A DNA stretch of 64,000 nucleotides, taken from positions 1,798,001 to 1,862,000 of the forward strand of contig NW_027191404.1 of NCBI RefSeq assembly GCF_041146345.1, in the 5' to 3' direction. Origin of the DNA: Neodothiora populina (taxonomy: Eukaryota). A model generated the notes under the pieces. That model worked only from the letters and a program-made list of their open reading frames with translations, searched no databases and had not been told where the DNA came from. Positions 13,334 to 16,300 of the stretch are shown here, piece after piece. The translations under genes and the position numbers were made by a program. Numbering within the stretch: the stretch's first letter is position 1; each line of letters begins with the position of its first letter.

Positions 13334-16300
13334 CTATGACTTCTCAAGGTCTGCGAGAATCTTCTCACCCTTGGCACGGGCGGACTCGATGTCACCGACC
13401 ATGTAGAAAGCACCCTCAGGAAGGTCATCGGCCTCACCGTTCATGATGGCCTTGAAAGATCTGATGGTGTCCTTGAGGTCGACGAGCTTACCCTCGATAC
13501 CAGTGAAGACCTGGGCAACGGTGAAAGGCTGGGACAGGAAACGCTGGAGCTTACGGGCACGCTCGACGGTAAGCTTGTCGGCCTCGGAAAGTTCGTCCAT
13601 ACCGAGAATGGCAATGATATCCTGGAGGGACTTGTACTCCTGGAGCATCTGCTGGACCTTGGAGGCGGTGTCGTAGTGGTCCTGACCGACGATACGGGGG
13701 TCAAGCATACGGGACTTGGAGTCGAGAGGGTCGACAGCGGGGTAGATACCCAACTCGGAGATACCACGGGACAAGACAGTGGTGGCGTCCAAATGGGCGA
13801 AGGTGGTGGCGGGGGCAGGGTCAGTCAAATCGTCAGCGGGCACGTAGACGGCCTGGACGGAAGTGATGGAACCCTTCTGGGTGGTGGTGATACGCTCCTG
13901 CATCAGACCCATGTCGACGGCGAGAGTGGGCTGGTAACCGACGGCAGAGGGGATACGTCCGAGAAGGGCGGACACCTCGGAACCGGCCTGGGTGAAACGG
14001 AAAATGTTGTCGATGAAGAGGAGCACTGTTCCAACATCAGTTTTTGCACCACAAAGTCGCCTTTTTCAGCTGAGCATATTCTGAACTCACCATCCTGTCC
14101 CTCCTGATCGCGAAAAAATTCAGCTACAGTAAGGCCTACATTGCAGAGTGTTAGCATGACTGTTCAGGGTTGTTCGATGTTGTGTGACGTTGTGTGATGA
14201 AGCAAGAAAGAAAAAAACTACCAGAACAAAAAATAAATAAAAAAAAACCAGAAACGCCAGACGCCAGAAGTCCAGAGGCCAAGAAAGGGGGGCCGGCTCA
14301 TTCGAGGTCGAGGTCGTCTTCGTCTTCATCGTCGTCTTCGTAATCGTCATCATCTTCGTCTTCGTCTTCGTCGGCGGCCTCAGCTTCGGCCTCGGCTTTG
14401 GTGGCCGCCCGTAGCACCTTTTTGGCGTGACTGGCGGCGGTCTCATGCCTCTTGAGGCTGCAGGCGTGGTCGAAACCTTTCTCGCACGGAGTGCACCAGA
14501 ATTTCTTGTTGGCCCTATCCCGGGCCCGCTTGGCGGCGACGGCGACGGCACTTTTTGACGGCGGCGGCTTGATCTTGCCAGCCACTCTGTCCCTGTGGTC
14601 TGGTGGTGAGGTGGCGTTTCAGGGCCACGGCCGACTGCATGTTTCTGTCACAATCTTCGCAATGAAACCGTCCCCCTTCGATGTTGCGGGTACGAACACG
14701 CCCCGCAGTAGCGTTGATTTGCGGTCGGCGATCCACCGACCAGGCATTCTTGTCCCGGCGAACCTTTTCCCTGTACGCCTCTGGATCTAGGGCGCGCATA
14801 AGAGCGCGGTGCCTTTGGGAGCCCGCAAGCGCCCGTTCGGCAGCCGTTTCCTTACGGAAGGCGGCCACAGCGTCCGCCTGGGCAGGGGAGAGAGTGAGGT
14901 TGCCACGAATCGGCCCGAGGATCGGGAGGTGAGAACAGAGGGGTTCGAGGAGGGCGGCGTCCCGGGGCCAGGGAAGGATATGCTCGAAGTAACCATCCGT
15001 AGCGGCATAGCTACATGCGTGGAAAATGATCGTGAAGATAGTCTCGAGCAGCAAGAATCGAGCTCGGACCGAGCCAGCCACGCCAGCGGAGGGTATAGGG
15101 CTCCAGCAAAGTAGACCCTTGGAAGAGACATGCCAACCTCTCTCGAAAGAGAGGCGCACGAAGCGGGGGAGCGGGTGGCCATCCGGGCGATAAACTCTCA
15201 GCCTGGAGGCGACGCCGCCAGCGGCGTCTGTGCCACTGCCAATGTACAGAATGGGCGTCTCGCCCGTCTTCTTCATCACCACCGCGTAAATTGCCCACAG
15301 CTTCTCACCAGCGGCGGGCAGCGGCAGGTCCTCAAAAAAGGCTGGCGGAGGGGGAGTGTCTGTGCACAAGACATCGCCAAGTCCTTCTGCCCAGGTCATT
15401 GGCGCCAGGGCCGTGATAGCATCGAAGGCGGAGCGGGTGGCCATAAGTTGACCGTAGGTAGGGTTCAGGTACCACTCGGGTACTTTTAATGTTGCGAAGG
15501 TAAAGCACATGTCTTCTAGTATGGCTATAGCACCGTCTTCGTCGACTGTTACCCCGGACGTACCGGTGTTGCGGGTGGTGGTGGTGTTGCTGGTGTCCTC
15601 GCTGGTGCTGGTGCAGGTGCTGGTGTTGCTGCGGCTGTTGCTGTTGCTGTTGATGCTGCTGCGGGGAGGGGCATCGACCATGACGACATCGTCGTCGTCG
15701 TCTTCCTCCTCGTCTTTGGTCTTCACGACCTTGGAGAGGGGAGTGGGGGCAGCAGGGCGGGCGGAGGCAGCAGCGGAGGGCAAAAGAGGGGCGGAGGGAG
15801 AGAAGTAGGAGGTGAGTTTGTTGCCATTTTTCAGGCCCGCCTTCGCAAGATCGGTCTTCTTGCCAGCCTTCTTCTTCTCGACTCTTGCGGGTGGTGCCAT
15901 CGTGATGGCCGTGGGTAAAAGAAAAGTGGAGTGCCGAAGCCAAAAAAAAGTTCCGAGAGAAATCGTCGAGAAAAAGACGAAAAAACGACGAGAAGACTAA
16001 CGGCTGGCTAACCAAAAATCCAGAAGACGACGGCCGAGGGCGTGTATGATACTCCATGATATCCAGGTAATGGTCCAATGGCAAGGGCGTTCCCAACAGA
16101 TTGGCAATAGGAAAGCGCGAAGGAGATAACATTTACAACGAGCAATGGGTGAGGGGAGACATGAACGACAAGCAATGGGAAGGTGCGAAGGGCAAACGCT
16201 GAGTATGGGACTTACCAGTAAGTGCAACACGGGCACGAGCACCCGGAGGCTCGTTCATCTGGCCGAAGACAAGAGCGACCTTGGACTCGCCGTCGAGTTG

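Follow-up and report, generated by a model that had tools for sequence, protein, structure and literature searches.

A candidate mobile spliceosomal intron with a GIY-YIG/C2H2 zinc-finger gene in ATP2 of the fungus Neodothiora populina

We analyzed a 64,000-nucleotide (nt) stretch of the genome of the fungus Neodothiora populina (NCBI RefSeq assembly GCF_041146345.1, contig NW_027191404.1, positions 1,798,001 to 1,862,000; referred to as the window), in which the nuclear gene ATP2, encoding the beta subunit of the mitochondrial F1 ATP synthase, is interrupted by a 2-kb intron with an open reading frame (ORF) of its own. We consider it probable, though by no means certain, that this intron (intron 6) is a decaying, endonuclease-bearing mobile spliceosomal intron with its own GIY-YIG/C2H2 enzyme. 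Splicing of the intron, the predicted GIY-YIG fold of its product, the location of known family copies on the host strand at invariant motifs, and the lack of the long intron in a closer relative would together be the signatures of a selfish site-specific element. All positions are given in the numbering of the whole 64-kb stretch, and ATP2 and the intron ORF both lie on the minus strand.

ATP2 (17394..13334) consists of eight exons, whose join after removal of seven GT-AG introns gave an open 1,554-nt frame for an F1 beta subunit of 517 amino acids (aa), and its identification is supported by this join, by Pfam matches to PF00006 and PF22919, and by spliced contigs of a sequencing run (X2). 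PF00006 was matched on either side of intron 6, and the gene has a mitochondrial-type presequence. Introns 1 to 7 measured 71, 106, 59, 69, 57, 2080, and 65 nt, respectively; six of them are short fungal-type introns of 57 to 106 nt, whereas intron 6 (16215..14136) spans 2,080 nt. Intron 6 starts with the donor GTAAGT, ends with the acceptor TAG, and contains the branch motif CTAAC at 14154-14150, 19 nt from its 3' end. It is a phase 1 intron splitting the codon of Gly273, between ALTG and LTVAEFF and about 15 to 20 codons before VLLFID. Exon 6 (16216..16408) ends with ...RVALTG and the first base of the Gly273 codon, and exon 7 (14091..14135; 45 nt) encodes the split glycine and 14 further residues. 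When read on into intron 6, the ATP2 frame meets a stop after 28 codons.

Removal of intron 6 was examined in contigs of four sequencing runs, out of 24 runs that matched the window. Run X2 came from the same sample as the likely source of the window sequence and is therefore not independent of the strain. It behaves as cDNA, judging from its intron-skipping joints, and its automatic label ("DNA?") is a guess. One joint in the X2 contigs skips exactly 2,080 nt (14134->16215, CT..AC on the plus strand, depth 415), which is the exact length of intron 6, and X2 contigs with depths of 363 to 475 also skip ATP2 introns 2, 3, 4, 5, and 7. The unspliced form was present in one X2 contig (2,138 nt, 14107-16244, depth 10.9) with 0 differences and no gaps, amounting to about 2 to 3% of the spliced depth. 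No Rfam family was matched at E<=1 in 13300-17500, and thus intron 6 appears to contain no group I or II ribozyme. Intron 6 is spliceosomal and is removed at the RNA level, and ATP2 stays intact. A preliminary description of this stretch, made from the letters alone, had drawn the intron at these coordinates, with a normal branch motif and splitting the conserved ALTG^LT glycine codon shortly before Walker B, and had regarded ATP2 as intact upon its removal; the exon join and the exact exon 6/exon 7 junction in the RNA-type contigs bear this out. Contigs do not reveal transcript ends, and a separate mRNA of the ORF is not readable from them. At 15492-15765 and 14259-14395, unrelated contigs from all four runs pile up on low-complexity codon repeats (Ser/Asn/Thr-rich and acidic), and depth there is therefore uninformative on the element.

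The intron ORF runs from an ATG at 15900 to a stop at 14298 on the host strand and occupies 77% of intron 6. It carries AIY-x13-YIG, a conserved Arg and Glu, two C2H2 fingers, and a basic N-terminus, all of which had been noticed in the preliminary description together with the size of the ORF, about three quarters of the intron. The N-terminal extension (15553..15900) begins with a basic stretch, followed by an acidic run and then by a part rich in Ser, Asn, and Thr. It is lineage-specific, being missing in the family proteins P0003 and P0004, and the first 116 residues were specific to the window copy in the alignment with relatives. The conserved core up to a frame break (14602..15552), delimited by the structure model described below, by alignments, and by tblastn with family proteins, consists of an N-terminal helical part, the GIY-YIG domain (14908..15321), a long linker of some 75 residues, also helical, and the first part of zinc finger 1. 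Zinc finger 1 (14611..14661) has the pattern C-x2-C-x12-H, with its last His past the break at 14601, where a single base belongs to neither frame (net +1/-2 compared with intact relatives); the same letters are found in the X2 contig. The ORF continues in another frame (14298..14600) with the rest of finger 1, a basic linker, zinc finger 2 (14495-14427), an acidic tail, and the stop (14300-14298), and this part gave weak zf-C2H2 matches in Pfam. Because the homology to intact relatives is continuous across the break (...KRHLTT / ...), we regard it as a frameshift rather than a small intron. It falls between the first and second His of finger 1, so that the product of the broken ORF is left without any complete finger, and the window copy is therefore probably no longer mobile.

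The GIY-YIG assignment rests on structure and conserved residues, because the Pfam model gives no match. AlphaFold2 modeled the unbroken part of the ORF with a mean predicted local distance difference test (pLDDT) score of 96.5 and the domain alone (15321..14908) with a score of 95.4. When the domain model was compared with 48,161 solved chains using VIA-align, the top match was the catalytic domain of I-TevI (1ln0_A; Z 9.2, root mean square deviation 2.4 Å, 89 of 92 residues aligned), followed by PD-T4-3 (Z 6.1), the N-terminal domain of UvrC (5.5), T4 EndoII (4.8), At-HIGLE (4.5), the N-terminal domain of a plant Grx (4.3), and R.Eco29kI (3.8; rank 7), with the Z score down to 2.1 at rank 50. 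Ranks 2 to 5 and 7 we take to be GIY-YIG nucleases from their names or superfamily membership, and the plant Grx domain is presumably GIY-YIG-like. The whole model had the same top match at Z 7.1. The window copy shows the motif WAIY-x13-YIGSG. GIY-YIG nucleases are characterized by paired (G/A)IY and YIG motifs some 10 to 13 residues apart on the first two strands, by an Arg after these motifs and a Glu on the next helix, and by a three-stranded sheet flanked by helices; the ORF conforms to this pattern by motif, conservation, and modeled fold. In an alignment of 81 family members, Tyr89 (of AIY) and Glu170 were invariant, and Tyr103, Gly105, Ser106, Arg117, and Tyr121 were kept in at least 90% of the sequences; an alignment of 103 sequences gave the same result. 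The equivalents of Arg117 and Glu170 are both present in the window copy, in which the key codons on the minus strand are Tyr 15288-15286 (AIY), Tyr 15246-15244 and Gly 15240-15238 (YIG), Arg 15204-15202, Tyr 15192-15190, and Glu 15045-15043. Based on the model and the alignments, we regard the predicted GIY-YIG fold and a conserved set of candidate catalytic residues as established.

Searches other than the structural alignment were less informative. The window ORF matched no GIY-YIG family in Pfam at E<=1, and PF01541 was not among the 25 Pfam families listed as matched by most of the 81 members scanned. When PDB was searched with a sequence profile, only zinc-finger proteins were returned. 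Foldseek gave nothing at E<=1e-3 against PDB and BFVD, and its weak matches were rich in GIY-YIG and intron-associated endonucleases; in PDB, 9 of the 11 matches listed through rank 12 were UvrC or I-TevI domains, none of them at E<=1e-3. The GIY-YIG claim of the preliminary description is thus supported by the fold and the conserved residues, although the Pfam GIY-YIG model remained unmatched.

By sequence similarity, the ORF belongs to a family that is large in ascomycetes. Exhaustive searching of 1.84 billion representative proteins with a family profile gave 5,150, 1,420, and 588 matches at E<=1e-3, 1e-10, and 1e-30, respectively, and the weak end of the 5,150 will include zinc-finger-only proteins. 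The small counts of three word-index searches (4, 4, and 6 matches) were discarded as meaningless, since low-complexity and zinc-finger words had filled their candidates while the profile search shows a large family. Named members are from Pyrenophora teres f. maculata, Parastagonospora nodorum (27 contigs in one cluster), Zymoseptoria tritici, and Pseudogymnoascus, and P0004 belongs to a 150-member ESM Atlas cluster in which Ascomycota is the commonest known phylum. The 64-kb window holds one family copy, and a scan of viral contigs found no relative of the ORF. One member, P0081 (1,515 aa, JGI model), has at least two family nuclease cores followed by repeated zinc-finger blocks (nine matched stretches) and could represent either several elements in tandem or a genuine multi-domain variant. 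Another, P0052, bears the name "ribosomal protein L37AE/L43A" without Pfam backing, which we treated as a zinc-finger mis-annotation.

One metagenome scan located relatives at three loci (L001, L002, and L003). L001 and L002 are ATP2 of another fungus, in which a P0003-type ORF lies on the host strand within an intron between ALTG and LTVAEYF. This ORF is 43% identical to the window ORF, while the ATP2 proteins are 92 to 98% identical. The host is distant, with an ATP2 third-codon identity of only 56 to 66% and a differing intron set. In L002, the intron (1036-2446; 1,411 nt) follows a complete Gly codon (ACTGGT/GTAAGT ... TTTTCAG/TTAACT) in phase 0, and its position is 2 nt downstream of the phase 1 position of intron 6; no alternative canonical splice pair in L002 gives the insertion position of the window. 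ATP2 in L001 and L002 lacks a counterpart of intron 5 of the window, and its last exon is interrupted by an additional intron (after ...DIIAIL), and hence ATP2 intron positions turn over between lineages apart from the nuclease intron.

Two further hosts were recognized from gene models that fuse a family ORF to its neighbor. In P0100 (Pyrenophora teres f. maculata, annotated as "ATP synthase protein"), a family ORF is fused to ATP1, the alpha subunit gene, which is represented from PF00006 profile position 99 onward. Since exon 6 of the window ends at profile position 91, the paralogues ATP1 and ATP2 are hit within about eight profile positions of each other. In P0167 (Pseudogymnoascus), a family ORF is fused to a 1,831-aa protein that we take to be CPSase-ATCase from the names of its Pfam accessions, with the host part beginning MNPETVSTDYD. 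Further fusions of this kind are suggested by an Atlas cluster automatically named "carbamoyl-phosphate synthase cpa2 family", which is only a lead. The family ORFs in ATP2, ATP1, and CPSase-ATCase are all on the host strand, each next to an invariant motif of an essential gene. In a FastTree phylogeny of 157 rows, the window ORF grouped with the ATP2 ORF of L001, P0007, P0012, P0004, and P0013 (support 83) inside a 35-row clade (98), the ATP1 copy fell in a different 32-row clade (97), and the CPSase copy was placed elsewhere. The three host genes thus correspond to three separate parts of the ORF tree, in which four tips have a known context, and the tree is consistent with one target per ORF lineage. 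The idea that homologues would also lie in conserved genes holds for ATP2 in two distant fungi, ATP1, and CPSase-ATCase, but not for L003, where no conserved host gene was seen.

The long intron is missing in a closer relative. A contig of run X18 from this relative (organism J; 962 nt, about 95% identical over 769 exon bases) has 93 letters between exon 8 and exon 6, versus 2,190 in the window. Apart from exon 7, the 93 letters can accommodate just one intron of about 50 nt, and so the intron with the ORF is absent there. The nearer relative is therefore without the long intron, while the far more distant fungus of L001 and L002 has one. Two contigs of run X8 in which exon 6 runs straight into exon 7 were rejected as an empty site, since intron 5 is also missing from them and the kind of run is not identified. 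In run X3, which bears another organism label, short low-depth contigs are identical to the element at 14774-14928, 15060-15356, and 15992-16250, and one of them crosses the border between exon 6 and the intron. The same fungus was probably present in the X3 sample, a large run, and these pieces are therefore no independent allele.

Decay of the ORF is seen beyond the window. Over 2,589 nt, L001 and L002 differ only by a 13-nt deletion in L002 that shifts the frame of its ORF, so that broken (L002) and intact (L001) alleles coexist in one species. Besides, the P0003 cluster includes truncated forms. Together with the break in the window copy, the deletion and the truncated forms match the decay expected of a selfish nuclease gene at an occupied site.

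The flanks of the ORF within intron 6 resemble host introns in GC content. The 5' flank (15901..16215; 315 nt, GC content 0.49) and the 3' flank (14136..14297; 162 nt, GC content 0.44, with a T-rich tract in addition to the branch motif and the acceptor) agree in GC with the short introns of the host. In the 5' flank, a pyrimidine-rich tract (about 16000-15905, minus strand) lies just 5' of the ATG of the ORF, with CCAAT at 16104 and ATTGG at 16079. CCAAT/ATTGG together with a pyrimidine-rich tract is a pattern resembling a filamentous-fungus promoter, and it is possible that this flank is an internal promoter for the ORF. A C-rich block with CCCATTGC is common to the 5' flanks of both ATP2 introns (window 16155-16134, L002 1064-1085), and a block of this type occurs twice in the window flank (16129-16149 / 16159-16179), the flanks being otherwise unalignable. 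The block might serve the intron ORF as a promoter element or as a recognition element. L002 also has a 17-nt inverted repeat at 1129-1174 (94% complementary, 12-nt loop), which ends 3 nt before the ATG of its intron ORF.

A mobile intron of this kind would work as follows. An intact enzyme would recognize and cut the uninterrupted coding sequence around ALTG/LTVAE(F/Y)F, and repair from the intron-bearing allele would copy the whole intron into the cut site (homing). If such a cut were occasionally repaired with no homologous template, the insertion points of separate lineages could come to differ by 2 nt. In an occupied site, selection on the nuclease gene would cease and the gene would decay, as may be seen here in the break within finger 1 and elsewhere in the 13-nt deletion allele. 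The ORF would probably be read from its own transcript starting in the 5' flank of the intron. The preliminary description had likewise read the intron as a homing element; the spliced spliceosomal intron, the GIY-YIG fold, and the invariant sites in essential genes agree with that interpretation, whereas the 2-nt offset, which misfits simple copying, does not.

Several points weigh against this interpretation. Nuclease activity, cleavage of the empty ATP2 site, homing, and biased inheritance are inferences, and Pfam and Foldseek alone fail to detect the GIY-YIG domain at their thresholds. The 2-nt offset of the two ATP2 introns does not fit faithful homing from one source. Absence of the long intron was seen in one contig of one relative, which may hold a short intron at position 6, and loss and gain are not separable there. 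At L003, a family fragment that is degraded and frameshifted neighbors a zinc-dehydrogenase gene, and no conserved host gene was seen around it. Members with a known context are few: in Pfam scans of 155 family proteins, of which 122 were covered only at E<=1e-12, a host fusion was seen in one (P0100). P0100 and P0167 are biased for orientation, because fusions are detectable only with the ORF on the host strand. The GC content at third codon positions of the ORF is 0.65 to 0.72, versus 0.67 for the host, which implies a long residence in the host. Furthermore, the fingers match Pfam zf-C2H2_jaz and zf-met, models described as binding double-stranded RNA, and DNA as their target is therefore an assumption. 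Translation of an ORF inside a spliced-out intron would need an explanation as well.

Among the other explanations, the one that best withstands the data, though we consider it unlikely, is that a free-standing selfish nuclease gene settled in an older ordinary intron as a safe harbor, so that the intron itself is not mobile and the gene moves between introns or intergenic sites. The ORF indeed has its own start and stop and is set between flanks of 315 and 162 nt with a GC content like that of short introns, most members are annotated as stand-alone proteins, and the L003 remnant lies outside any recognized conserved gene. However, the two ATP2 introns are in different phases and 2 nt apart, and hence they are not one shared old intron, and the contig of organism J has room for at most one intron (about 50 nt) across positions 6 and 7. 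Every copy with a known context is on the host strand, which also speaks against a gene that merely shelters in introns, though two of these copies were findable only for that reason.

A little less probable still is an ordinary or domesticated nested gene, inherited vertically in an old ATP2 intron and having a cellular role such as DNA repair or RNA binding. Vertical inheritance of a useful gene is hard to reconcile with an ORF that is broken in the window and carries a 13-nt deletion allele in the other species, with the lack of the long intron in the closer relative, with sister lineages occupying other essential genes, and with the 2-nt difference in position between the ATP2 cases. The ORFs are moreover only 43% identical, versus 92 to 98% for ATP2. 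In favor of a nested gene are its host-like codon usage, the large family with many intact members, and the presence of a related ORF at nearly the same place in a distant fungus.

We find it doubtful, and somewhat more so than a nested gene, that intron 6 is a site-specific intron-forming transposon, namely, an "introner" with a nuclease gene that inserts at a preferred sequence and is not copied from a homologous allele. Separate integrations at one preferred sequence would account for the 2-nt offset, the element brings its own splice signals, and family members are found in several genes; on the other hand, there are no terminal inverted repeats, target-site duplication, or reverse transcriptase, and the window holds a single copy. 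GIY-YIG enzymes are known as homing and repair nucleases and as the endonuclease of Penelope-like retroelements, but are not known as cut-and-paste transposases, which also counts against a transposon. That the intron is an artefact of assembly or annotation, arising for instance from a chimeric contig or from foreign DNA, can practically be dismissed, because spliced mRNA and the unspliced intron, the latter with 0 differences, are both represented in an independent set of contigs from the source sample, pieces identical to the element recur in the differently labeled run X3, and metagenome contigs of another species show the same layout.

Further types of element were considered and rejected. 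An intein is ruled out by the stop that the host frame meets 28 codons into the intron and by removal at the RNA level. A Penelope-like or other retroelement or DNA transposon was rejected because neither a reverse transcriptase or transposase domain, nor terminal repeats, nor a target-site duplication was present: no terminal inverted repeat or long terminal repeat bounds intron 6, no terminal inverted or long direct repeats were detected, and the Pfam scan of the ORF gave only weak zinc-finger matches. The preliminary description, which had reported none of these features, agrees with the repeat and Pfam scans. The heptamer CTTACTG on both sides of the intron is not a target-site duplication but the Leu-Thr codons of ALTGLTV, and the X8 contigs reading through the site also carry CTTACTG on the 3' side. 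Membership in the set of mirusvirus "shintrons" (spliceosomal homing introns, discussed below) was likewise rejected, since the host is a fungal ATP2 whose six other introns are short and of fungal type and whose product has a mitochondrial-type presequence.

More tentatively, and with slightly more doubt than belief, we propose that ascomycete nuclei hold a large, hitherto unrecognized class of mobile spliceosomal introns ("cellular shintrons"), in which every lineage has a GIY-YIG/C2H2 enzyme specific for an invariant motif in a single essential gene, with ATP2, ATP1, and carbamoyl-phosphate synthase as examples of what are probably many targets. Such introns would behave as naturally occurring gene drives and be a source of new introns in fungal housekeeping genes; they would also have a common origin with the GIY-YIG/zinc-finger nucleases of giant viruses. 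The origin of new spliceosomal introns is an old open question, and the known sources are transposon-like introners; homing was tied to self-splicing introns and inteins until a virus-intron proposal of 2025. If true, our proposal would provide a second, site-specific route of intron gain and a natural nuclear gene drive in filamentous fungi. It is directly testable, with defined target sites and both intact and broken natural alleles, and family members are carried by Parastagonospora nodorum, Zymoseptoria tritici, and Pyrenophora teres, of which many isolates have been sequenced. In addition, a family that comprises several hundred clusters, and in which Pfam recognizes nothing but zinc fingers, can now be named, and mis-annotated fusion proteins ("ATP synthase protein" and "cpa2 family") are explained by family ORFs. 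The enzymes could also offer a new modular nuclease scaffold with long conserved recognition sites.

Fungal nuclear homing elements include the VDE (PI-SceI) intein in VMA1, WHO elements, and ribosomal DNA (rDNA) group I introns with His-Cys box enzymes. Like the ATP2 intron, these are selfish fungal nuclear nuclease genes that lie in or beside highly conserved genes and avoid harm. They differ from it in being removed as protein or as ribozyme or, in the case of WHO elements, not at all, and in using LAGLIDADG or His-Cys box enzymes; to our knowledge, none of them uses a spliceosomal intron. Introners and introner-like elements share with the proposed ATP2 element that mobile DNA creates new spliceosomal introns. 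They are short, non-coding or transposon-derived, and present in many copies at many sites, whereas the ATP2 intron is 2 kb long, encodes a putative nuclease, is single in the window, and occupies one site per lineage. Giant-virus (Nucleocytoviricota) proteins in the ESM Atlas have the same combination of GIY-YIG and zf-C2H2_jaz/zf-met and are the nearest named language-model neighbors of P0004 (score 0.86 to 0.87). Unlike the ATP2 ORF, they are shorter (about 190 to 240 aa) and their GIY-YIG domain is detectable with Pfam. An evolutionary link between the fungal and giant-virus nucleases, drawn from this feature score and not from an alignment, is a lead only.

The closest published counterparts are the mirusvirus shintrons (PMC12768974, Nat Microbiol 2025). 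They are described as GT-AG introns in virion genes with HNH, GIY-YIG, and other nuclease genes, the type of nuclease tracks the target gene, homing is proposed but not demonstrated, and such an association is stated not to have been seen before (PMC12768974). The view in the preliminary description that no such system had been described is therefore outdated. Shintrons and the ATP2 intron are alike in being GT-AG introns without group I or II structure, in lying in conserved essential genes, and in containing a GIY-YIG gene; they differ in that shintrons are from virus genomes assembled from metagenomes, whereas the ATP2 intron is in a fungal nuclear housekeeping gene with contig-level RNA evidence of splicing (PMC12768974). 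The protein family also appears to differ from the shintron nucleases described there in that its GIY-YIG domain is invisible to Pfam and in having an extra N-terminal helical part and two jaz/met-type C2H2 fingers. A literature search, which covered few subscription journals, found no nuclease-carrying spliceosomal intron in a fungal nuclear protein-coding gene, the matches being mitochondrial, rDNA, or viral, and the mirusvirus paper was the sole match on spliceosomal homing introns. The ATP2 intron would thus be the first cellular nuclear protein-coding case of a shintron-like intron, with a new nuclease family. With I-TevI and the GIY-YIG enzymes of group I introns, the ATP2 ORF shares the predicted catalytic fold (Z 9.2), the Tyr/Tyr-Gly/Arg/Glu set, a modular arrangement of nuclease, linker, and binding module, and the location of the intron at a conserved site of a conserved gene. 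The differences are that the ATP2 intron is removed by the spliceosome and not by its own ribozyme, that the similarity is undetectable with Pfam, that two C2H2 fingers form the putative binding module, and that the host gene is nuclear. By analogy, the ATP2 intron may work like a shintron or an I-TevI-type homing intron, being itself not a viral shintron, an intein, or a retroelement and, with one copy in the 64-kb window, probably not an introner-like element.

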